64,000 bases of DNA from Burkholderiales bacterium (GCA_050260375.1 JBLNCA010000007.1:1597-65596), one strand, 5' to 3'; shown: positions 27,495 through 62,385, counted from the first letter of the stretch. Notes: a model not told the origin generated them from the letters alone. Numbers and translations are program-made.

Positions 27495-27622
27495 TTTACA
27501 TCACCGCCTCAAATAGCCTCACGTCTTGCCGGGGACCCCGTATTTACACCCCATAAAACTCTTGCTTTATGGGGACCCCGTATTTACACCCCATAAAGCT
27601 TTTGCTTTATGGGGACCCCGTA
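27495..27622 (+). repeat. Family-1 hairpin repeat, array of three units
   Basis: A degenerate unit at 27495-27542, then two 40-bp units: 27543-27582 (TTTACACCCCATAAAACTCTTGCTTTATGGGGACCCCGTA) and 27583-27622 (TTTACACCCCATAAAGCTTTTGCTTTATGGGGACCCCGTA). Confidence 0.9.
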
Positions 27623-38613: not shown

Positions 38614-38689
38614 GGGGACGAGGCAAAGCCTCTCCCCTTATACACACCCCATCAAGTCTTGCGACTTGCCGGGGGCCCCGTATATATAC
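38614..38689 (+). repeat. GC hairpin plus diverged family-1 unit
   Basis: GGGGACGAGGC-aaa-GCCTCTCCCC (38614-38637), then TTATACACACCCCATCAAGTCTTGCGACTTGCCGGGGGCCCCGTATATATAC. Confidence 0.7.
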
Positions 38690-38736: not shown

Positions 38737-38900
38737 ATTACCCCATCAAGCCTCACGACTTGCTGGGGACCCCGTATTTACACCCTATTAAGCCTCACGA
38801 CTTTTTGGGGACCCCGTATTTACACCCCATCAGCCTCACGGCTTGCTGGGGACCCCGTATTTACACCCCATCAAGTCTCACGACTTGCTGGGGACCCCAT
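38737..38900 (+). repeat. Family-1 hairpin repeat, array of four head-to-tail units
   Basis: Units at 38737-38776, 38777-38818, 38819-38859 and 38860-38900. Each reads (T)TTACACCCCAT(C/T)AAGYCTCACGRCTTGCTGGGGACCCCGTA. Confidence 0.9.
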
Positions 38901-42517: not shown

Positions 42518-43657
42518 TCAGATTCCGTATTTTCCGCCGGGCAGCCGCTTTATGAGGCCGCCAAGCTCCATCAGCGTAAGCGCCGAATTTATCTCGCTTT
42601 GAGGATATTTTATGCTCAGAGCAATGCTTTCAACACTTGTATCGCCTTGCAGAAGCAAATTATATATTTGGCGCTGTAAAAAATCAAGCTGTATACATTT
42701 TTCACCCCAACAAGCCTTACGTCTTGTTGGGGACCCCATATCCGCTGCGGCGGGCGCTTTTTCGCTTCCCAGCCCGTAAAACTCTAGTATGTCTACCGCG
42801 CTGCACGCTATGCAGGCGCCCTGCTTTATCAGCATATTTGAAAGAGACGCCGTACTAAGATACGGCGGGCCGGGCACAGCGAATACGTCGCGACCCAATG
42901 CGACGGCCATAGAAGCGGTTATCGCCGTGCCGCCCTCTATTTCCGACTCTACAACCAGCGTTCCTTTTGACAGCCCCGCGATTATCCTGTTTCGCACGGG
43001 AAAATTCGCGGCAAGCGGCTGCGTTCCCGGCGGCAGTTCAGAGATTACCGCTCCGTTCTCCACTGTTTTGTAATATATATCGTCACTTTCCGGCGGATAG
43101 ATTACATCAACTCCGCAGCCGAGCACCGCTATTGTCTTTCCGCCGGCTTCGAGCGCGCCCGAATGCGCCGCCGTGTCTATGCCGCGCGCCATGCCCGAAA
43201 CAACGGCCACGCCCGCTTCCGCCAGCTCTTTTGCTATCCGGCGCGCAAGCTCAAAACCTTTTCTTGTGCACCGCCTCGTGCCCACTATGCTTATCGCGTC
43301 AAGCGGCTTTTTTGTGTCGAACACTCCGCTTAACGCTCCTTTAACGAACAACACGGGCGGCGGGAACTGCAGCCCGGCAAGCCTCTCGGGATATTCGCCC
43401 GACAGCCTCGTAACTGCGGTTATGCCTTTTGCGGCGAGCTCCGATATTATTTCGGCTACGCGCTGCTCCGAGCAGTAGGCCCTGGCGGTTTTCGCGGCGT
43501 CTGCGGAGATGCTTTCAAGCGGCTTGCCGCTTTTTACCGCATCAAAAAACGTGCCCGCGTCCCCGAATTCCTTCAATAAATAATAGAACGCCTTCGGGCC
43601 TATCACGGGCATAGACGCCATCCATATCCAGTATTTTTCCTGCTCGGTGTACGCCAA
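42518..43657 (-). CDS. dprA: DNA-processing protein DprA (Smf)
   Basis: 379 aa. Rossmann-like core (IVGTRRCT...VVSGMARGIDTAAH...VLGCGVD) and C-terminal winged-helix-like part. TTG start with GGGAGGTG SD. Contains an in-frame repeat unit (see findings). Confidence 0.85.
   Translation of the reverse strand: MAYTEQEKYWIWMASMPVIGPKAFYYLLKEFGDAGTFFDAVKSGKPLESISADAAKTARAYCSEQRVAEIISELAAKGITAVTRLSGEYPERLAGLQFPPPVLFVKGALSGVFDTKKPLDAISIVGTRRCTRKGFELARRIAKELAEAGVAVVSGMARGIDTAAHSGALEAGGKTIAVLGCGVDVIYPPESDDIYYKTVENGAVISELPPGTQPLAANFPVRNRIIAGLSKGTLVVESEIEGGTAITASMAVALGRDVFAVPGPPYLSTASLSNMLIKQGACIACSAVDILEFYGLGSEKAPAAADMGSPTRRKACWGEKCIQLDFLQRQIYNLLLQGDTSVESIALSIKYPQSEINSALTLMELGGLIKRLPGGKYGI
42698..42740 (+). 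repeat. Family-1 unit inside the dprA coding sequence
   Basis: TTTTTCACCCCAACAAGCCTTACGTCTTGTTGGGGACCCCATA, with a perfect 10-bp stem. Confidence 0.85.
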
Positions 43658-53245: not shown

Positions 53246-53590
53246 TTATCTCTTTTCTTTGAGCTTCGCGGCTTTGCCCGCGCGTTCGCGCAGGAAGTAA
53301 AGCTTTGAACGTCTCGTCTTGTTGCGTCTCACTATCTCTATGCCCGCTATCTTGGGCGAGTGTATAGGGAACGTGCGCTCTATGCCGACGCCGAACGAAA
53401 CGCGGCGTACGGTTATCATCTCGCGGATGCCGCCGTTTTTGATGGCGATAACGTATCCTTCGAACGTCTGAATCCTCTCCCTCGTGCCTTCAACGACTTT
53501 GACGAGCACTCTGACGGTGTCGCCCACGCTGACTTTGGGCAGATCGGTGCGCATATGTTCTTTTTCGATAGCCTTAATGACGTTATCCAT
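53246..53590 (-). CDS. rplS: 50S ribosomal protein L19
   Basis: The ATG at 53590 preceded by AAGGAGG gives [28 protein letters not shown]. The upstream extension in the track has no SD. Confidence 0.95.
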
Positions 53591-53712
53591 TTTGCTGATT
53601 CCTCCTTGTCTGCTGAATACCCGAAAAATCATTTCGGGCGGACTCCAGGCGTTCATAATCGATATATCATCCGAAAAATAAGGATGCGAAAAGCGGACCG
53701 CCCTAAATCAAC
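53591..53712 (-). promoter_or_regulatory. Structured rplS 5' leader (candidate L19 autoregulatory element)
   Basis: GGGCGGUCC (53703-53695) pairs with GGA-gu-CCGCCC (53646-53636) and encloses CAUCC-loop-GGAUG. The 3' arm overlaps an alternative hairpin, CCCGAAA-loop-UUUCGGG. Confidence 0.45.
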
Positions 53713-53718
53713 TCTGGA

Positions 53719-53747
53719 ATTATAACACAACGCCAATAACAAGGCAA
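53719..53747 (-). promoter_or_regulatory. Sigma-A type promoter for rplS
   Basis: The minus strand reads TTGCCT (53747-53742), 17 nt, then TGT-TATAAT (53724-53719). The 14-nt core TGTGTTATAATTCC is the same as at rpsB. Confidence 0.6.
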
Positions 53748-53892
53748 GTGTTGATTTTACCGTTTTCTCTGCGGGAAGACATTAATATATTTTGCTAAGT
53801 TGACATTATTTTATGTTTATTGTAATTGGTATTATATAGTGAGCAATTATATTTGCAATACTTTTAGCGCCTATAAATTTTTCATTTTTTCC

Positions 53893-53922
53893 TTGACTTG
53901 CGCCATACAGGATGCATATAAT
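53893..53922 (+). promoter_or_regulatory. Sigma-A type promoter for the aromatic operon leader
   Basis: TTGACT (53893-53898), 18-nt spacer, TATAAT (53917-53922). Divergent from the rplS promoter. Confidence 0.6.
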
Positions 53923-53948
53923 ATTATAAATATATTTGGAGAGGCAAT

Positions 53949-54050
53949 ATGACGGGCATATCTGCAAACAAAAACTTTATGTTTACCGGCCGGAGCTATT
54001 ATGGCTTCGGATATTTTGCGTACGGTAAATATAAATGTTTGCGGATATGA
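53949..54050 (+). CDS. Candidate Phe/Tyr-rich leader peptide of the aromatic amino acid operon
   Basis: Below the track's size cutoff. SD GGAGAGG (53938-53944); ATG...TGA encodes MTGISANKNFMFTGRSYYGFGYFAYGKYKCLRI (4 Phe and 5 Tyr in 33 residues). It lies between a consensus-like promoter and an intrinsic terminator. Confidence 0.45.
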   Translation: MTGISANKNFMFTGRSYYGFGYFAYGKYKCLRI

Positions 54051-54083
54051 GTTGCTGATACTATAGGTAAATACTTGAAACTT

Positions 54084-54116
54084 AAGGGAGCTCATAACCG
54101 GCTCCCTTTTAATTTT
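54084..54116 (+). terminator. Intrinsic terminator (attenuator) between the leader ORF and aroF
   Basis: AAGGGAGC (54084-54091), 9-nt loop, GCTCCCTT (54101-54108), then TTAATTTT. It lies 34 nt after the leader stop and 60 nt before the aroF ATG. Confidence 0.65.
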
Positions 54117-54120
54117 GATA

Positions 54121-54163
54121 ACGGGGCCCCCGGCAAGCCGCGAGGCTTGATGGGGTGCATAAA
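54121..54163 (-). repeat. Family-1 unit, inverted copy, in the aroF leader
   Basis: The plus strand reads ACGGGGCCCCCGGCAAGCCGCGAGGCTTGATGGGGTGCATAAA, the reverse complement of the family consensus. Its end abuts the aroF SD (AAAGGAGG). Confidence 0.8.
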
Positions 54164-54175
54164 AGGAGGCAATAA

Positions 54176-55192
54176 ATGGTAATTGTACTTAAGCCGGAGG
54201 CGGACCAGGGCAAGGTAAAAGAACTAGTCGATATGCTGGAAAGAGAATACAATCTTGAAGTACAGCGCATGGATGGTGTAAACTATTCCATATTGGGACT
54301 TATTGGCGACACATCATCACTCGAGATCGACCCTATCGAAGAGCAGGACGTAGTAAGAAAGGTGCTGCGCGTGCAGGAGCCTTACAAGAAGGTGAACCGC
54401 GCGTTCCACCCTGAAAACACCGTCGTTACAGGCGAAGGTTTTGAGATTGGAGGCGACAGGCTTGCGCTCATCGCGGGGCCGTGCGCCGTAGAAAGCGAAG
54501 AGCAGATAGTTTCCATAGCGAAAAAAGTAAAGAAGGCGGGCGCCAACATGCTGCGCGGAGGCGCTTTCAAGCCGCGCACAAGCCCGTACAGGTTCCAGGG
54601 CCTCGGGCGGGAGGGTCTCGACTTCCTCGTAACGGCAAAAAAGGAAACGGGACTGCCGATAGTCAGCGAGATAACGAGCGTGGACCTTATAGACGTTTTC
54701 GTGGATAAGGTGGACCTGATACAGGTGGGCGCGCGCAACATGCAGAACTTCGCGCTGCTGCAGGAACTCGGCAAATGCCGCAAGCCCGTGATGCTCAAGC
54801 GCGGCATGTCGGCGACGATTGAGGAATGGCTCATGTCGTCCGAATACCTGCTCTCGGGGGGGAACAACAACGTAGTGCTATGCGAACGCGGCATAAGGAC
54901 CTTCGAGACTTTCACGCGCAACACTCTCGATATAAGCGCCGTGCCGGTGGTAAAGAAATTAAGCCATCTGCCGGTAATAGTCGACCCGAGCCACGCGGCA
55001 GGCCTGTGGTGGGCGGTAGAGCCGCTGTCAACGGCGGCGGTATGCGCGGGCGCGGACGGGCTTATAATAGAGGTTCACGATCAGCCGGGCGAGGCGCTGT
55101 CCGACGGACAGCAGTCGCTTTTGCCCGATAATTTCTCCAAAGCCGTTAAAAAGATAAGAGCGGCGGCGGAGCTTATGGGAAAGGCCATCTGA
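54176..55192 (+). CDS. aroF: 3-deoxy-7-phosphoheptulonate synthase, type I-beta with N-terminal ferredoxin-like regulatory domain
   Basis: 338 aa. N-terminus MVIVLKPEADQGKVKELVDML... resembles the Thermotoga-type regulatory domain. Catalytic barrel LIAGPCAVESEEQ...KRG...DPSHA. SD AAAGGAGG. Confidence 0.9.
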   Translation: MVIVLKPEADQGKVKELVDMLEREYNLEVQRMDGVNYSILGLIGDTSSLEIDPIEEQDVVRKVLRVQEPYKKVNRAFHPENTVVTGEGFEIGGDRLALIAGPCAVESEEQIVSIAKKVKKAGANMLRGGAFKPRTSPYRFQGLGREGLDFLVTAKKETGLPIVSEITSVDLIDVFVDKVDLIQVGARNMQNFALLQELGKCRKPVMLKRGMSATIEEWLMSSEYLLSGGNNNVVLCERGIRTFETFTRNTLDISAVPVVKKLSHLPVIVDPSHAAGLWWAVEPLSTAAVCAGADGLIIEVHDQPGEALSDGQQSLLPDNFSKAVKKIRAAAELMGKAI

Positions 55193-55195
55193 TAT

Positions 55196-56056
55196 ATGGA
55201 GGATCGATTTTCCGGGGGTTCCGTGTACAGTGAAGCCCGCATACTGATAGCCGGGCTGGGGCTTATAGGCGGCTCGGCTGCCAAAGCGCTTAAAAAAGCC
55301 GGTTACGATAATCTTTACGGGTTTGACAGCGACAGCAGCGTAATAAGCAGCGCGGTAAACGAAGGCGTGCTGCTCGGCGGGTATACCGATATAAGCAAGC
55401 TGCCCGAATCCGACCTGATTATATGCTGCCTCCCCCCCGCCGCCGCAGCCGGGTTTTGCCGGAGCGCGCAAAGCCGCCTTAGGGACGGAGGCGTATTCGC
55501 GGAGATGGGCGGCATAAAAAGCGGCGTTATAGACGACATGGCTTCCGCGCTCGAAGGAAGCCGCGAGCTGTTATCGCTGCACCCTATGGCGGGCAGGGAG
55601 AAATCGGGGTACGGGCACTCTGACCCGGAGCTAATGCGCGGCTCGGTGCTGATATTCACACCGACAAAGAAGACGCGCATAAGCGCGCTTATGTGGGCGA
55701 GCATACTGCAAAAGGCATTTGGCTGCAGCGACATACGCGAGCTGTCCGCAAGGCGGCACGACGAGGTGATAGCGCGCGTCAGCCACCTGCCGCACATAAT
55801 AGCGCTTGCCATAAAGGCTATGGAGGACGACGACGTTTTGCAGCCGTTCGCGGGCGGCAGCTACAAATCGGCTACGCGCGTTGCGGGCCTTAATCCAGCG
55901 CTGTGGACGGAGCTGTTTTGGAGCAACAGGGACAACATACTGAAAAGCATATCGCAGTTTAAGGAATCGCTCTCGAGGCTTGAAGAAGCGCTGGGAGAAG
56001 GCGACGAATCAGTGCTTAACGCACTTATAAAGGAGACATCAAAAAGCGAGGAATGA
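55196..56056 (+). CDS. tyrA: Prephenate dehydrogenase
   Basis: 286 aa. ILIAGLGLIGGSAAKAL dinucleotide fold and SLHPMAG motif. Confidence 0.85.
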   Translation: MEDRFSGGSVYSEARILIAGLGLIGGSAAKALKKAGYDNLYGFDSDSSVISSAVNEGVLLGGYTDISKLPESDLIICCLPPAAAAGFCRSAQSRLRDGGVFAEMGGIKSGVIDDMASALEGSRELLSLHPMAGREKSGYGHSDPELMRGSVLIFTPTKKTRISALMWASILQKAFGCSDIRELSARRHDEVIARVSHLPHIIALAIKAMEDDDVLQPFAGGSYKSATRVAGLNPALWTELFWSNRDNILKSISQFKESLSRLEEALGEGDESVLNALIKETSKSEE

Positions 56057-56057
56057 C

Positions 56058-57173
56058 ATGGAAATATTGAACATAGATATTGGGCGAAACAACTACAGCG
56101 TGTATATAGAGCGCGGCTTGATCCGGGACGTTCCCGAATTTCTAAAGCTTAAGTATCCGAACAGCCGTTTCGCGGTGATAACGGACACAAACGTACGGGA
56201 TATATACGGCAATAAGCTCTCGGCGGGGCTCGATGCGGCCGGCATAAAGCACAACGTTATAGCGCTGCCTCCCGGCGAGAGTACGAAGAGCTTGAAGAAT
56301 TTTTCGCATATACAAAGCCGCCTTGCGCAGCTTGAGTATACGCGCACCGACCTGATAATCGCATTGGGCGGAGGCGTAGTTGGCGATTTGGCGGGGTTCG
56401 CGGCGTCCGCTTACCTGCGCGGCATACGCTACGTGCAGATACCTACGACGCTGCTTGCGCAGGTAGACAGCTCGGTGGGCGGCAAGACCGCAGTAAACAT
56501 TCCCGAAGGCAAAAACCTCGTGGGCGCGTTCCATCATCCCGACGCGGTATATATAGACCCGGACGTGCTGGCAACGCTCGGCGGAGAGGACTTCGCTGGC
56601 GGCATGGCCGAGGTGATAAAATACGGCTTCATAAAAGACAAGGCGATACTTGAAACTCTCGAAGAGGAGTATATAACCGCGCATTCGCCCGAGCTCGGCG
56701 CGCTCGTTAAGCGCTGTCTCGAGATAAAGCGCGATCTCGTCGAGGCGGACGAAAAGGACAGGGGCGAGCGCATGCTTCTTAACTTCGGCCATACCATAGG
56801 GCACGCTCTAGAGCGCGTATGCGCGAAAGGCGGAAGACGTATTACGCACGGGCAGGCGGTCGCGCGCGGCATGGCGTCGATAACCAAAGCGAGCGAGCGC
56901 ATGGGACAGACGAAGCTGGGCACGGCGGCGTATATCATTCACCTGCTGCACAAGTACGGGCTCCCCTGCTGTCTCGGCGGTTTCGACACGCAGCAGATAC
57001 TCGAGGGCATATTCGTTGACAAGAAAAACATAAACGGCAAGCTGAATCTCGTGCTGCTCCGCGAGCCGGGCGTATCGTTCATCCATCCGATAGACAAAAA
57101 CGGCATGGCCGAATACATTGCCCCAAAAAGCCTCCCGGCTTTTATAGGGGCTGATGTTAGGGACGGCGTATGA
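56058..57173 (+). CDS. aroB: 3-dehydroquinate synthase
   Basis: 371 aa. LGGGVVGDLAGFAA, PTTLLAQVDSSVGGKT, FGHTIGHALE. The C-terminal tail overlaps a repeat-like hairpin. Confidence 0.9.
   Translation: MEILNIDIGRNNYSVYIERGLIRDVPEFLKLKYPNSRFAVITDTNVRDIYGNKLSAGLDAAGIKHNVIALPPGESTKSLKNFSHIQSRLAQLEYTRTDLIIALGGGVVGDLAGFAASAYLRGIRYVQIPTTLLAQVDSSVGGKTAVNIPEGKNLVGAFHHPDAVYIDPDVLATLGGEDFAGGMAEVIKYGFIKDKAILETLEEEYITAHSPELGALVKRCLEIKRDLVEADEKDRGERMLLNFGHTIGHALERVCAKGGRRITHGQAVARGMASITKASERMGQTKLGTAAYIIHLLHKYGLPCCLGGFDTQQILEGIFVDKKNINGKLNLVLLREPGVSFIHPIDKNGMAEYIAPKSLPAFIGADVRDGV
57116..57150 (+). repeat. Family-1-like hairpin inside the aroB 3' end
   Basis: TACATTGCCCCAAAAAGCCTCCCGGCTTTTATAGGGG. Confidence 0.5.
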
Positions 57174-58432
57174 ATATCACCGTATTTCCTTCAACGCTCG
57201 GCGGCGTTTATACCGCTCCCCCGTCCAAGAGCGCGGCGCACCGCGCGGTGATAACCGCGGCGCTCGCCCGGGGCCACAGCGTAATAGAAAACGTCGATAT
57301 GTCGAGCGACATCACGGCTACAGCGGGCGCGTGCGAGGCCCTTGGGTGCTCTGTGAACATAGAGCCGTCGGGCAGGTACAACAAGCTGCATATCGAAGGC
57401 GGCATGAGCATCAAAGGAGAAGCGCATATTGACTGCGCGGAGTCCGGCTCGACGCTGCGCTTTATGATACCCGTTGCGTGTACGCTGGAAGGCCGCAAGG
57501 CTTTCTTTGGGCGCGGGCGGCTGCCCCAAAGGCCGATCGGCGAGTATATACGCATATTTGACGAGCAGGGCCTGCGTTACAGCAAGCCGGAAGACTTAAA
57601 TCTCCCCCTCTCCGTCTCGGGCACATTGAGGAGCGGCGAATACGTAATAGACGGCGGAGTGAGCTCGCAGTATATAACGGGGCTGCTGATGGCGCTGCCT
57701 CTGCTCAGCGGAGCTTCAACGATAACGGTAACGGGCAGCTTCGAATCCAAAGGCTACGTCGACATGACGCTTGCAACGCTGAAAGGGTTCGGCGTGGATA
57801 TAGAACGGCGCGGCAGCACCTATATAATAGAAGGAAACCAGTCGTACAAGCCGCGTTGCATTTCTATAGAGGGCGATTACTCGCAGGCGGCGTTTTTCAT
57901 GGCGGGCGCGGCGCTTTCGGGAGACTTAACGATAGAAGGCTTGGGTGCCCGTTCGTTGCAGCCCGATCGCGCCATAGTCGACATACTGCGGCGCATGGGC
58001 GCGGATATCGAACAGGCGGGCGGCGCGCTCCGCGTAAGGCAGTCAAAGCTTCACGGCGCGGGCATTGACGTGTCGCAGTGCCCCGACCTCGTGCCGCCGA
58101 TAGCTGCAGCAGCGGCGTTCGCGCATGGCGTAACGCACATAACGGGCGCGGCAAGGCTGCGCATAAAGGAATCCGACAGGCTGAGAGCTTTAAGCGTCAA
58201 CCTTAACAATATAGGCGTTGAGACAATCGAGCGCGAGGATTCGCTCGTTATAAACGGAGGCGCGGTGCGCGGCGGAAAAATAGACTCGCTGGGCGACCAC
58301 CGTATAGCGATGGCGTTTGCGATAATGGCGCTGCGCAGCGAAAGCGGAGTGACGATAGAAGGGGCGGAATGCACCGCAAAGTCGTACCCCGCGTTTTTTG
58401 AAGAACTGAAAGCTTTGGGAGGGCGCGTATGA
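57170..58432 (+). CDS. aroA: 3-phosphoshikimate 1-carboxyvinyltransferase (EPSP synthase)
   Basis: 420 aa. PPSKSAAHRA, ESGSTLRF, DHRIAMAFA. ATGA overlap with aroB. Confidence 0.9.
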   Translation: MNITVFPSTLGGVYTAPPSKSAAHRAVITAALARGHSVIENVDMSSDITATAGACEALGCSVNIEPSGRYNKLHIEGGMSIKGEAHIDCAESGSTLRFMIPVACTLEGRKAFFGRGRLPQRPIGEYIRIFDEQGLRYSKPEDLNLPLSVSGTLRSGEYVIDGGVSSQYITGLLMALPLLSGASTITVTGSFESKGYVDMTLATLKGFGVDIERRGSTYIIEGNQSYKPRCISIEGDYSQAAFFMAGAALSGDLTIEGLGARSLQPDRAIVDILRRMGADIEQAGGALRVRQSKLHGAGIDVSQCPDLVPPIAAAAAFAHGVTHITGAARLRIKESDRLRALSVNLNNIGVETIEREDSLVINGGAVRGGKIDSLGDHRIAMAFAIMALRSESGVTIEGAECTAKSYPAFFEELKALGGRV

Positions 58433-59502
58433 GCGTTTGGGGAAGAAGTATAACGGTGGACATATTCGGGGAATCTCACGGCGAGGCGATAGGCGTCGTG
58501 CTTAGCGGCTTAAAGCCCGGCTTTAAGCTCGACATCGAAAAAATACAGGCGATGCTGGATAGGCGCAAGGCGGGAGGCGAAACGTGGTCCACAAAGCGCG
58601 GCGAGGCCGACAGATTCAATATCGTAAGCGGCGTGCTTAACGGACGCACTACGGGCGCTCCGCTGTGCGCATTGTGCGAAAACAAAAACGCGCGTTCCGG
58701 CGACTACCCCGAAGGCCTGAACCGTCCCGGCCACGCCGACTATACCGCATATGCGCGTTACGGCGGCTTTAACGACGCGCGCGGAGGCGGCGCTTTCTCG
58801 GGCAGGCTCACCGCACCGCTCGTTTTCGCGGGCGCGGTAGCGGCGCAGATGCTCGAAGAAAAGGGCGTATACGCCGCGGCGCATATAAAGCGCCTTGCAG
58901 GAGTGGACGATGAGGCGTTCGATCAAACGAATATAACGCGCGAACTGGCGGACGCACTTAAAAGCTCTCGGTTCCCGCTTATAGACGTCTCGAAGCAACA
59001 TGAAATGGAAAGCCGCATAGCGCAGGCCGCGGCGGAAGGCGATTCTGTGGGCGGCGTAGTTGAATGCGCCGTATGCGGCTTGCCCGCGGGGCTGGGCGCG
59101 GAGTATTTCGGAAGCGTCGAGAGCGCGCTTTCCTCTATACTTTTTGCGATACCCGCCGTAAAGGGCGTATCGTTCGGCGCGGGCGCATCAATAGCGGATA
59201 TGCGAGGCAGCGAGGCAAACGACGAATATATAATCAGGGACGGAAATATTGCTGCGGTCACGAACAACAACGGCGGCATACTCGGCGGCATAACGAACGG
59301 CATGCCGGTGGTCTTCGACGTGGTGATAAAGCCTACGCCGTCTATAGCGAAGCCGCAGTGCACCGTCAACCTTAAAACTATGGAGCCGGAGACTATAGAG
59401 ATTAAGGGCAGGCACGACCCGTGTATCGTGCCGCGCGCCGTGCCCGTAGTGGAAGCGGCGGCGCTGCTCGCGATACTCGACATAATGGCCGGAGGTTTAT
59501 GA
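58429..59502 (+). CDS. aroC: Chorismate synthase
   Basis: 357 aa. FGESHGEAIGVVL, RPGHADY, GRHDPC motifs. 4-nt overlap with aroA. Confidence 0.9.
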   Translation: MSVWGRSITVDIFGESHGEAIGVVLSGLKPGFKLDIEKIQAMLDRRKAGGETWSTKRGEADRFNIVSGVLNGRTTGAPLCALCENKNARSGDYPEGLNRPGHADYTAYARYGGFNDARGGGAFSGRLTAPLVFAGAVAAQMLEEKGVYAAAHIKRLAGVDDEAFDQTNITRELADALKSSRFPLIDVSKQHEMESRIAQAAAEGDSVGGVVECAVCGLPAGLGAEYFGSVESALSSILFAIPAVKGVSFGAGASIADMRGSEANDEYIIRDGNIAAVTNNNGGILGGITNGMPVVFDVVIKPTPSIAKPQCTVNLKTMEPETIEIKGRHDPCIVPRAVPVVEAAALLAILDIMAGGL

Positions 59503-60623
59503 TGGGATACGACGAAGAGATAAGCGCACTGCGCTCAAAAATAGACGAGATAGACGCAAAACTTACCGCACTTTTCGAGCAGCGTATGGACGCAGTGGCC
59601 GAAGTTGCGAAAGTTAAGAGCGCCTACGGCAAAGAGATACTGGACAGCGCTCGCGAACGCGAGGTTTTAGAGCGGGCCGTCTCGCGGCTTGACAACAAGG
59701 GATACAGCGAGCAGATAAAAGCTTTTTTCCGTTCTATAATGGATATAAGCAAAATGTCGGAGGCAAGGCTGATGGCTCCCCCGCCCTCTTCCGCGCCCGC
59801 AAAGCGCGTGGGATACCTCGGCATACCGGGCTCGTTCTCGCACACCGCGGCGGAGGAAATGTACGGGCATTGCGAACTTATAAGCTACGATACGTTCGAC
59901 GCGATATTCGAGGGGCTTAAAAAGGACGAGATAAGCATTGCTATGCTTCCCGCCGAGAACACCGAAACTGGCAGCATAACTGCCGTCGTAGACCTGCTCG
60001 CTAAATACGGGTTTTATATAGTCGCGGAAAAGCTGCTCAAAGTGCGGCAGAGCCTGCTGGGCGTTAAAGGCGCAAAGCCGGGCGAGATAAAGGTCGTGTA
60101 TTCGCACTCCGAGCCGTTCGCGCAGTGCAGCGCGTTCCTCGCGGCGCGGCCCGGTATAGAGACTCGCCCCTCGTTAAGCACTGCGCAGGCCGCAAGCACG
60201 GTGGCGCAAACAGGCGACGCAAGCGTTGCGTGCATCGCGTCCTCGAAAGCCGCGCAAATCTATGGCCTTGAAGTGCTGGCAGAGAACATACAGAACAGCG
60301 ACGGCAACTGCACGCGGTTCGTGGCGGTAGCAAAGCAGCCCTGCAAAAGCGAAGAATGCGACAAGACAAGCATAGTGTTCATGGTGGAGCACAGGCCGGG
60401 CTCGCTGTGCGAGATATTAAGCATACTGCAGAAAGGCGGAGTCAACATACTGAAGCTCGAGTCCCGCCCGATAAAGGATAAGCCGTTCGAGTACATGTTT
60501 CACCTCGACTTTGAGGGCAGCATACACGACAAAGGCATAGCGGAGGCGATAGACAACTTAAAGAAAGCCGCCGCGGATTATATTTACCTCGGCAGCTACA
60601 AGCGCGAGACGAGGATGCCATGA
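59499..60623 (+). CDS. pheA: Bifunctional chorismate mutase / prephenate dehydratase
   Basis: The ATG at 59499 overlaps the aroC stop (ATGA). CM helix EEISALRSKIDEIDAKLTALFEQRMD, PDT region VGYLGIPGSFSH, C-terminal ACT region (TSIVFMVEHRPGSL). The upstream extension in the track overlaps aroC. Confidence 0.9.
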   Translation: MMGYDEEISALRSKIDEIDAKLTALFEQRMDAVAEVAKVKSAYGKEILDSAREREVLERAVSRLDNKGYSEQIKAFFRSIMDISKMSEARLMAPPPSSAPAKRVGYLGIPGSFSHTAAEEMYGHCELISYDTFDAIFEGLKKDEISIAMLPAENTETGSITAVVDLLAKYGFYIVAEKLLKVRQSLLGVKGAKPGEIKVVYSHSEPFAQCSAFLAARPGIETRPSLSTAQAASTVAQTGDASVACIASSKAAQIYGLEVLAENIQNSDGNCTRFVAVAKQPCKSEECDKTSIVFMVEHRPGSLCEILSILQKGGVNILKLESRPIKDKPFEYMFHLDFEGSIHDKGIAEAIDNLKKAAADYIYLGSYKRETRMP

Positions 60624-61951
60624 CCACCCCAAAAGCCTCACGGCATTCCCCAAATAGCTATATGAAAGCGGGATTGCTGGGCGAAAAGCTGTCGCACAGC
60701 CTGTCGCCCGCGATACATCAAAAGTTCTGGCGGCTGTCGGGCATCAAAGGAAGCTACGAGCTTTTTGAGTCGCGGCGCGATGGTATTGAGGCGCTTCTAG
60801 GCAGGCTGGAGCGTGAAGGCTATATCGGCATTAACGTAACGATACCTTACAAGACGGAGGTAATGAAGTACCTTAATGAACTGTCCCCCGAAGCCGAGGC
60901 GATAGGCTCGGTAAACACGGTAATGTTCCAAGGCGGCAGGCGGCTGGGGTACAACACCGACTACTTCGGTTTAAAGACGCTGCTCGATTCGTCGGATATC
61001 GCGATAGCAGGAAGAAGCGTCGTAATACTCGGCACGGGCGGCGCGGCGCGGTGCGCGTTGAAGCTTACACGGGATATGGGAGCGCAGAGCGTAATTGCGG
61101 TAAGCCGCTCGCCGGAGAACGCAGGAGTACCAGGAGCGGTAAGCTACGAAGCGCTCGATAAGCTCGACGGCATAGACGTGCTTATAAACACTACGCCCGT
61201 TGGCATGTCGCCCCATACGGACGGCTGCCCCGTTAGCGAGAGCGTGATAGGAAAGTGCGGCAGCGTCGTGGATCTCGTATACAACCCGGCTGAAACGAAG
61301 CTGCTTTCCAACGCGCAGGCTTTTGGCATTAAAGCAGTAAACGGCTTAGGTATGCTGTGCGCACAAGCCGTCAAGGCGCAGGAGATATGGAACGGACAGA
61401 TATACGGAAGCGATATATACGACAGCGTTTACAAGTACATGCTCCGCGTCGTTTATAAGCCGAACATAGTGCTGATAGGCATGCCGGGCAGCGGTAAAAC
61501 GACGGTGGGCAGGCTGCTTGCAGACTGGCTCAACATGGAGTTTATCGACACGGACGCTATGGTGGAAAAGGAGCACGGCCCAATACCCGATATATTCAAT
61601 GCCGAGGGCGAAGAAGCGTTCAGGGCATACGAGCGCGAAGCGGCAAAGAAGGCCGCAGCGGCACACGGCGCCGTGATATCCACAGGCGGGGGCATAATAC
61701 TTGACGGGCGCAATATGTACGCGCTTAAGGAAAAAGGCACCGTAGTGTTTCTCGACCGGCCGCTTGAGGCGCTGCTTAAAGATACTGATACGTCGGGGCG
61801 GCCGCTGCTCGCGGGGGGCAAAGACGCCATCGCCGAGCTTTACAGGCAAAGGCACGGGCTGTATAAAAAGTACGCCGATATAATAACCGACAACTCATAC
61901 GGCGCGGAGGGCTGCGCTCGGGAGATAATTGAAGCTTTGGAGGACATGTGA
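60620..61951 (+). CDS. aroE: Fused shikimate dehydrogenase / shikimate kinase
   Basis: 443 aa. AroE part (LGEKLSHSLSPAIH, ILGTGGAAR) followed by an AroK part (IVLIGMPGSGKTTVGR...DTD). The start is either the ATG at 60620 (ATGA overlap with pheA) or the ATG at 60662. Confidence 0.85.
   Translation: MTTPKASRHSPNSYMKAGLLGEKLSHSLSPAIHQKFWRLSGIKGSYELFESRRDGIEALLGRLEREGYIGINVTIPYKTEVMKYLNELSPEAEAIGSVNTVMFQGGRRLGYNTDYFGLKTLLDSSDIAIAGRSVVILGTGGAARCALKLTRDMGAQSVIAVSRSPENAGVPGAVSYEALDKLDGIDVLINTTPVGMSPHTDGCPVSESVIGKCGSVVDLVYNPAETKLLSNAQAFGIKAVNGLGMLCAQAVKAQEIWNGQIYGSDIYDSVYKYMLRVVYKPNIVLIGMPGSGKTTVGRLLADWLNMEFIDTDAMVEKEHGPIPDIFNAEGEEAFRAYEREAAKKAAAAHGAVISTGGGIILDGRNMYALKEKGTVVFLDRPLEALLKDTDTSGRPLLAGGKDAIAELYRQRHGLYKKYADIITDNSYGAEGCAREIIEALEDM
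60623..60651 (+). repeat. Degenerate family-1-like segment at the pheA/aroE junction
   Basis: ACCACCCCAAAAGCCTCACGGCATTCCCC shares the CACCCCAAAAGCCTCACG left half. The right arm is decayed. Confidence 0.4.
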
Positions 61952-62385
61952 TGAAAATACTCGTGATAAACGGGCCCAACATCAATCTGCTGGGCATAAG
62001 GGAGCCGGAAGTATACGGCAAAAGTGACTATAATGCGCTCGTCGCTTCTCTGGACTCGCTTGCGCGCGAGCTCGGCGTGGCTATAGACGTATGGCAGTCG
62101 AACATAGAAGGCGAAATAGTCACGAAGATACAGCAGGCAAGGGACGAGTACGACGGCATAGTGATAAACCCCGGGGCATACACGCACTACAGCATAGCGC
62201 TGCTCGACGCGCTGAAAGCCGTAAATCTGCCCGCTGTGGAGGTGCATCTATCCAACATCGCCGGGCGCGAGGATTTCCGGCACATGTCCGTGACCGCCGC
62301 GGGCTGCATAGGTCAGATTTCCGGCCTTGGGTTCGATTCATACCGCCTCGCCGTCGAAGGGCTTGTAAGGTATATAGAGCGTTGA
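61948..62385 (+). CDS. aroQ: Type II 3-dehydroquinate dehydratase
   Basis: 145 aa. ILVINGPNINLLGIREPEVYG and INPGAYTHYS motifs. Confidence 0.9.
   Translation: MMKILVINGPNINLLGIREPEVYGKSDYNALVASLDSLARELGVAIDVWQSNIEGEIVTKIQQARDEYDGIVINPGAYTHYSIALLDALKAVNLPAVEVHLSNIAGREDFRHMSVTAAGCIGQISGLGFDSYRLAVEGLVRYIER

Follow-up and report, generated by a model that had tools for sequence, protein, structure and literature searches.

A putative Phe/Tyr-codon leader-peptide attenuator upstream of a shikimate-pathway operon in a Clostridia-like lineage

Leader-peptide attenuation is regarded in textbooks as mainly proteobacterial, whereas the amino-acid operons of Bacillota are said to use T-boxes. The classical proteobacterial attenuators (trpL, pheL-pheA, pheM-pheST and hisL) follow a 1:2 / 2:3 / 3:4 pairing logic, and their switching is kinetic. 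Within Firmicutes, the his genes were the first for which regular leader peptides were noticed, and these were called unexpected (PMC2965389). For aroF, the closest described systems are the aroR-aroF leader of Corynebacterium glutamicum, which carries Phe and Tyr codons (F-Y-F) and on which ribosome stalling raises transcription, with a reported response to Phe limitation (Neshat et al. 2014, as summarised in PMC11802643), and uORFC-13-1, a candidate upstream open reading frame (ORF) with proposed attenuation that is known from 24 representatives, in Acholeplasma and environmental sequences only (Brewer et al. 2021, PMC8632094). Premature termination has also been mapped experimentally in the aroF 5' untranslated region of Clostridioides difficile, without a known riboregulator (Fuchs et al. 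2021, PMC8237595). Here we analyse the region 53893-54116 of a 64,000-nucleotide (nt) stretch of DNA (JBLNCA010000007.1:1597-65596; the whole stretch is called the window, and all coordinates are positions in it), which precedes an operon for the shikimate pathway and for Phe and Tyr synthesis. On sequence comparison and folding models, we judge with good confidence that this region is a ribosome-mediated (leader-peptide) transcription attenuator of that operon, as a preliminary description made from the sequence alone had proposed, although the antiterminator has to be placed differently.

Compared with the C. glutamicum system, with which it shares a leader peptide with Phe and Tyr codons upstream of an operon containing aroF, the window leader carries two clusters with nine aromatic codons in total and a long hairpin whose loop holds Tyr codons, and it precedes eight genes, tyrA and pheA among them. 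The actinobacterial leader has a single F-Y-F motif; this comparison is by description and follows the summary cited above. In uORFC-13-1, too, a promoter, a ribosome-binding site (RBS) and one or more Phe codons come immediately before an intrinsic terminator that precedes aroF, and the lineage is related to Bacillota (PMC8632094). By its description it is a U-run coding at least one Phe, with an extra stem. The gene context agrees with that of the window and the taxon does not, and an Acholeplasmataceae locus in our own set (L066) carries a different, short Tyr leader (MSLVQRAVYAYTYD). With the classical attenuators the window leader shares regulatory codons in a short ORF, a stop placed to block the antiterminator and an intrinsic terminator. 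It differs from them in addressing two amino acids (three in some relatives) through interspersed codons and not a single-residue run, in a 1:2 structure that is a hairpin of about 90 nt enclosing nearly the whole ORF, and in matching no Rfam leader. T-boxes (RF00230) occupy the same position at the same gene and respond to tRNA charging through a terminator/antiterminator read-out, but they detect uncharged tRNA themselves, independently of translation; we found them at 7 of 80 aroF loci and not in the window.

The leader ORF and its close relatives

The promoter, the Shine-Dalgarno (SD) sequence and the 33-codon ORF lie where the preliminary description had put them (Table 1). The encoded peptide holds 4 Phe and 5 Tyr, making 9 of its 33 codons aromatic, and the earlier count of 7 aromatic residues within codons 17-28 was reproduced. 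When the ORF body was shuffled 5000 times with dinucleotides preserved, only 0.6% of the shuffles had at least as many in-frame aromatic codons (mean 4.2), and the other two frames of the window ORF contain 2 and 5; base composition does not account for this richness. Aromatic codons are frame-specific, with 27% in the ORF frame against 7% and 14% in the others. The leader uses TAT for 4 of its 5 Tyr and TTT for 3 of its 4 Phe residues, while the eight aro genes (54176-62385) favour TAC (57:27) and TTC (52:30); pooling 42 leaders gave 167 TAT to 55 TAC and 159 TTT to 37 TTC. This bias could make for sharper sensitivity, or may merely satisfy a requirement for an AU-rich loop. No second copy of the leader was found elsewhere in the window.

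A scan with the aroF product, covering one genome per species, yielded 80 loci (designated by L numbers). The window belongs to an uncultured, Clostridia-like lineage of Bacillota near metagenome-assembled genomes (MAGs) of Christensenellaceae, with 95% identity for L001 and 84% for L015. As the clade we took the 15 closest loci (aroF product 72-95% identical) together with four leaders from a metagenome pattern scan, 19 in all; besides these four new leaders, the scan returned one duplicate and one false match (L083). The promoter (CTTGAC...GCATATAAT), the SD with its ATG, a frame that is open over 31-43 codons and a terminator were present in 14 of the 15 closest loci, as was a shared peptide core, ..Y-F-S-F-x3-4-Y-Y-(Y)-G-F-G-Y-F... 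At L001 just 158 nt are available 5' of aroF, hence only the 3' part of its leader is visible. Relatives with an identified ORF start have a GGAG-type SD shortly 5' of the leader ATG, and their frame stays open through 3-nt in-frame indels, such as an extra TAT. The aromatic positions show only exchanges between Tyr and Phe or synonymous changes (TAT/TAC, TTT/TTC), and the terminator (AAGGGAGCUC-loop-GGGCUCCCUUUUU) is nearly invariant across the clade, that of the window included. An alignment of related leaders had been recommended in the preliminary description; the ORF, its aromatic codons and the terminator proved to be kept in all 19 close relatives, as were the promoter, the SD, the apical hairpin and the aroF operon, and the first three recur in distant Bacillota.

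Alternative pairings and the proposed switch

The strongest conserved partner of the terminator lies at the leader stop codon. This segment (segment 2) holds the UGA in the window and pairs with the 5' arm and loop of the terminator (segment 3; Table 1). Relatives carry CGGUYAUGGGUUGCUUG, 16-17 nt, at their leader stop (-15..+1), and covariation links the end of the terminator loop to the 5' end of this segment: GGU:ACC is the most frequent combination, GGC:GCC occurs in L008, L009, L011 and L082 and GGA:UCC in L014, with G-U intermediates in L010 and L084 and mismatches in L012 and L013. That the loop pairs with segment 2 accounts for its conservation. Overall, 15 of the 19 clade members have the segment at the stop codon as the partner of the terminator. 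A like trend was seen in 17 lineage representatives whose terminators are largely unrelated to one another: in nine of them, one being the window, the best complement to the terminator 5' half falls within -25..+13 of the leader stop (P = 0.0025).

Most clade members (L003-L007, L010, L012, L013, L081, L082, L084 and L086) have a leader that ends in ..W-(V/A)-A-stop, with its UGG codon within the 5' strand of the antiterminator (AUGGGUUGCUUGA); the window, with an earlier stop in another frame, has no Trp codon. The C-terminal Trp codon (..WVA-stop) was considered as a Trp sensor and rejected. A ribosome stalled on it would favour termination, since it sits within segment 2; it is therefore implausible as an inducing codon and more probably a by-product of the pairing sequence AUGGG.

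The leader ORF itself is predicted to fold into a long imperfect hairpin. The preliminary description had seen a hairpin at 53990-53996/54004-54010 around the Tyr codons; this hairpin (P1) is present, but is merely the tip of the ORF-spanning structure at 53957-54049. The fold of the whole leader RNA has a z-score of -4.9, and among the 42 leaders folded the median z was -2.7, with 30 below -2. Most of these are predicted to form a long hairpin whose apical loop holds 2-4 aromatic codons, and relatives build equivalent hairpins from differing basal-stem sequences. Across 24 family members, 88% of the cells of P1 pair and 3 of its 8 pairs have changed on both sides (for example CCGGAGC/GCUUCGG versus CCAAAGC/GCUUUGG); its covariation score is equalled by only 2 of 500 shuffles. 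The amino acids that the arms encode vary (RS, PG, QS, WG, LS / GFG, SFG, SAG, AP) while the pairing is kept, an indication that the arms are constrained as RNA and the aromatic positions as codons. RNAalifold applied to a MAFFT alignment of the whole leader recovered just P1 and the terminator; as the variable middle region is misaligned, the antiterminator was sought sequence by sequence. In the window the 3' base of the long hairpin (54036-54049) shares 8 nt with segment 2, and in relatives either the hairpin base or the SD-AUG region pairs with segment 2, so the long hairpin is proposed as the anti-antiterminator (1:2).

In the preliminary description, the 3' arm of P1 (~54000-54010) took the place of segment 2 in an otherwise identical attenuator, in which a stall at F10/F12 would free that arm. 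The pairing it called for is feasible, with a duplex of -10.1 kcal/mol between 54000-54016 and the terminator 5' half, and the best terminator complement does fall in the P1 region in L022, L031/L035 and L058 and just 5' of P1 in L007 and L013. The P1 3' arm (UAUGGCUUC) moreover resembles segment 2 (UAUGAGUUGC), so that either could serve. We nevertheless consider this wiring unlikely: the duplex is weaker than that of segment 2 (-13.9 kcal/mol), the arm would be hidden under a ribosome that stalls on the apical Tyr codons, and this wiring leaves unexplained why the terminator loop is conserved and covaries with the stop-adjacent segment, and why the complement recurrently overlaps the stop codon. 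The folding with alternative structures that had been advised thus bore out the existence of alternative pairings, and moved the antiterminator strand to the stop-codon segment.

The conservation of the hairpin also raises the question of whether the RNA acts on its own. A long hairpin serving as the sensor for a trans-acting factor (such as a small molecule, a protein that binds RNA, or uncharged tRNA recognised by the loop codons), with an incidental ORF, would fit the very high conservation of the nucleotides at the tip, the strong fold z-scores over the 42 leaders and the apical aromatic codons, which recall a specifier loop. We hold it to be very unlikely, since SD and AUG are conserved, the frame survives indels, the aromatic codons are frame-specific (27% versus 7% and 14%) and stay constant while stem-encoded residues vary, the stop codon is located on the antiterminator, and conserved internal loops or junctions typical of aptamers are lacking. 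The known RNA families speak against it as well. No Rfam family reached its gathering score anywhere in the window, and a search of 53650-54250 with 4227 Rfam families at E<=10 returned no T-box, no amino-acid leader family (Phe, Trp, His, Thr, Leu; leu/phe) and nothing else relevant. The T-box model RF00230 scored 95-131 bits directly upstream of aroF in L032, L047, L049, L072, L074, L077 and L078, a positive control for the negative result in the window. Readings of the leader as a T-box, a riboswitch or a small RNA were dropped on these Rfam negatives, in agreement with the earlier remark that no T-box motif is visible in it.

In a further rival reading, the peptide is the active product. 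The motif (..YF.F..GYYYFSAGYF..) is strikingly conserved across orders, beyond what is seen in many classical leaders, as might be expected of a TnaC-like exit-tunnel arrest peptide sensing free aromatic amino acids, or of a small hydrophobic protein, whose codons would not report charged tRNA. This we deem highly improbable. Tyr, Phe and Trp interchange freely at the aromatic positions, the conserved non-aromatic residues (S, G, A, W, R) correspond to hairpin-arm codons and change where pairing allows, the N- and C-termini are unconserved, and TnaC-type logic induces on amino-acid excess, the wrong sign for a biosynthetic operon. A hybrid, in which the loop codons (by tRNA-loop contact) or the nascent aromatic peptide (by amino-acid-dependent arrest) contribute directly to sensing, is a speculative idea that we think quite unlikely; it derives from the Tyr/Phe codons in the apical loop and from a motif of the F-S-W-G-Y-F-Y-F-S-A-G-Y-F type common to several orders, and such a sensor, if true, would be distinct both from T-boxes and from classical leaders.

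For attenuation by segment 2, the dependence on ribosome position was modelled on transcripts ending just before the terminator 3' arm, with the ribosome masking the RNA to 11 nt past the A-site codon. In these truncated transcripts the terminator 5' arm was ~80% paired as long as the modelled ribosome was upstream, wherever it stood. Most of the 15 clade leaders showed a drop to ~10-50% with the A site at the last ~4-7 codons, a number that differs between leaders, or at the stop; for the window the last four codons gave 30-50%, and L014 showed no drop. The parts and their conservation, the frame-specific aromatic codons, and the alternative pairings with their dependence on ribosome position are established by sequence, comparison or folding.

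We infer from these that the ORF is translated, that ribosomes stall on it, that folding follows a kinetic order and that the outcome responds to the supply of Tyr and Phe. Transcription would start a few bases past the -10 box, and a ribosome would then load on the 33-codon leader. With ample Tyr-tRNA and Phe-tRNA it would reach the UGA at 54048 and cover segment 2 (54042-57), allowing the terminator (54084-54108) to form and RNA polymerase to halt before aroF. Were charged Tyr- or Phe-tRNA scarce, the ribosome would stall at F10/F12 or at Y17-Y28, holding the long hairpin open and leaving segment 2 free to pair with 54085-99 before the terminator 3' arm is made, and transcription would read through into aroF-tyrA-...-pheA-...-aroQ. 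In an untranslated leader, the long hairpin (53957-54049) would sequester part of segment 2, and termination would be favoured.

Several results weigh against this mechanism or narrow it. In the approach tried first, equilibrium folding of the full-length leader under a sliding ribosome mask, the terminator won in nearly every modelled state, and in relatives its probability exceeded 0.9 except at isolated positions and in one leader, L012; since the full-length RNA at equilibrium almost always forms the terminator, the switch must be kinetic, and the truncated transcripts took the place of this model. The antiterminator reached a probability of 0.71 without any ribosome in the truncated window transcript, which makes the branch from absent translation to termination weak for the window. 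For eight of the 17 lineage representatives the best terminator complement is at another place, which in several is the P1 region. The window stop codon is in another frame position, 8 nt upstream of the conserved GCUUGA stop of its relatives. The covariation of P1 is modest, because the sequence is so conserved, and the frame statistics of the distant leaders described below are partly circular, as these were found by a search for aromatic richness.

Table 1. Features of the leader region and the operon that follows it
Feature	Position	Strand	Sequence or detail
Promoter, sigma-70 type	53893-53922	+	-35 TTGACT 53893-53898; 18-nt spacer; -10 TATAAT 53917-53922; 11/12 consensus matches
Leader SD	53938-53944	+	GGAGAGG
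Leader ORF	53949-54050	+	MTGISANKNFMFTGRSYYGFGYFAYGKYKCLRI; 33 codons and UGA (54048-54050); ATG at 53949
Long imperfect hairpin (predicted)	53957-54049	+	codons 4-33; ΔG -42.4, z -6.9 (ORF alone)
Aromatic cluster 1	53976-53984	+	F10 (53976-53978), F12 (53982-53984); in 5' strand of long hairpin; equals Y-F-x-F of relatives
Apical hairpin P1	53990-54010	+	CCGGAGCUA / UGGCUUCGG, loop UUA; CCGGAGC(UA)/(UG)GCUUCGG; Tyr codons at top
Aromatic cluster 2	53997-54032	+	Y17, Y18, F20, Y22, F23, Y25, Y28; Tyr codons 53997-54002 top the hairpin
Segment 2 (putative antiterminator 5' strand)	54042-54057	+	CGGAUAUGAGUUGCUG; holds leader stop; duplex ΔG -13.9 kcal/mol
Segment 3 (putative antiterminator 3' strand)	54085-54099	+	AGGGAGCUCAUAACC; terminator 5' arm and loop; pairs with segment 2
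Intrinsic terminator	54084-54116	+	arms AAGGGAGCU / GGCUCCCUU; stem 54084-54092 / 54100-54108; loop CAUAACC; T-run UUUUAAUUUU; ΔG -13.2 kcal/mol
aroF SD and start	54163-54169 (SD); 54176 (ATG)	+	
Operon	54176-62385	+	aroF, tyrA, aroB, aroA, aroC, pheA, aroE-aroK, aroQ

Aromatic leaders across Bacillota

Upstream regions of more distant aroF homologues (51-64% identity) were scanned over 450 nt for small ORFs with at least 6 aromatic residues per 12. Such ORFs were found in about 25 further loci beyond the clade, each followed by a GC-rich hairpin and a U-run. The genera include Alkalibacter, Haloimpatiens, Vallitalea, Alkaliphilus, Acidaminococcus and Dialister, and the higher groups Oscillospiraceae, Peptostreptococcaceae, Tissierellia and a spirochaete MAG, a span that covers Clostridia and Negativicutes. 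Altogether, 40 of the 80 regions upstream of aroF contain an aromatic-rich small ORF with an ATG, compared with an expectation of 0.027 per 450 nt from other parts of these loci, and a terminator followed the leader ORF in every family member examined. The preliminary description had held such leaders to be unusual in Bacillota, which it expected to use T-boxes or protein-mediated control; this rarity did not hold, aromatic leader ORFs before aroF being common in Clostridia and their relatives; T-boxes were found at seven of the 80 loci. A nucleotide profile built from the window clade also detects many of the distant leaders, reaching Negativicutes and Peptostreptococcaceae, and MAGs of the latter family carry an aromatic leader ORF (MREQNRNVQSTYSYLFFSWGYYYAP...) with a terminator.

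The operon contexts of the family extend beyond aroF. The Sporomusaceae bacterium BoRhaA has two paralogous leaders, at 4001-4144 of L087 and 4001-4135 of L088, in front of aroF-aroB and aroA-aroC-aroK, and in Hydrogenoanaerobacterium the leader precedes aroF-tyrA-aroB-aroA. These contexts tie the leader to the shikimate pathway as a whole and not to aroF alone. Taken together, the sequences make ribosome-mediated attenuation look like a major control of the shikimate pathway in these Bacillota lineages.

Protein resources hold little on the peptides. Hidden Markov models of Pfam and NCBIfam gave no meaningful match to five family peptides at E<=10, and a profile search of 5.8 billion proteins returned just 35 predicted leader peptides, with motifs such as FFSWGYFYFSAGYF, all of them without a name or called 'hypothetical protein'. 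A published description of a Clostridia-wide aromatic leader family was not found in the literature searched, which left out most subscription journals and whose silence is no proof of absence. The mechanism itself seems classical and involves no new principle; the widespread family in Bacillota is apparently unannotated. A family model would improve the annotation of gut and environmental Clostridia, and a compact sensor reading two or three amino acids could find use in engineering. The family may also explain the orphan premature termination in C. difficile, which yields a terminated short transcript 5' of aroF in this species of Clostridia; we treat this link as a lead and not as a result.

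The seven loci with a T-box at the position of the leader ORF present one gene family that switches between two sensors of tRNA charge. Further Tyr-rich leaders, apparently unrelated to the family, were seen ~150-250 nt 5' of aroF in L019, L033, L040 and L066, each followed by a hairpin and a U-run. Those of L019 and L033 read ..NYSYIYP.., that of Christensenella sp. L040 reads MQNYARIYAYCLYYEY.. (MQNYARIYAYCLYYEYCNAGCLRCA), and that of L066 is the short Acholeplasmataceae leader already mentioned. These four suggest that aromatic leaders have been invented repeatedly.

Terminator surroundings and operon

The terminator and the aroF SD behind it were found as first described, with the T-run TTTTAATTTT extending from the stem to 54116. 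The upstream neighbour, rplS (53246-53656), lies on the minus strand and is divergent, so the terminator serves no upstream gene, and its interpretation as the 3' end of such a gene was excluded. The operon contains pheA and tyrA, and no trp genes were found in it downstream of the leader, which confirms the gene content given earlier. The aroF product is a 3-deoxy-D-arabino-heptulosonate 7-phosphate (DAHP) synthase whose N-terminal domain, noted before, proved to be ferredoxin-like (FXD; PF18152), and pheA encodes a protein of the chorismate mutase, prephenate dehydratase and ACT (CM-PDT-ACT) type. The longest pheA ORF (59421-60623) begins at a GTG and overlaps aroC by 82 nt, so that its actual start probably lies more downstream. 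One fused ORF of 443 amino acids combines aroE and aroK (60620-61951; Shikimate_dh_N plus SKI).

Between the attenuator terminator and the aroF SD lies a GC-rich hairpin of ~38 nt that resembles repetitive extragenic palindromes (REP), ACGGGGYCCCCGGCAAGYCGYRAGRCTTGATGGGGTG, at 54121-54158 on the plus strand (ΔG -22.6). Further copies, all on the minus strand, are at 38647-38674, 38741-38768, 38783-38810, 38866-38893, 42705-42732 and ~27504-27539, and the window holds at least 6 copies against 0 expected. The element is missing from the same spot in the 95%-identical relative L001 and consequently looks like a recent insertion. In L003-L006 and L081, a second terminator-like hairpin (GGGGAGC...CUCCCUUUG) with a GGACGGAAGGACGGA repeat is found ~20-60 nt past the attenuator terminator and before aroF; it could represent a second regulatory layer or an extended RBS region.

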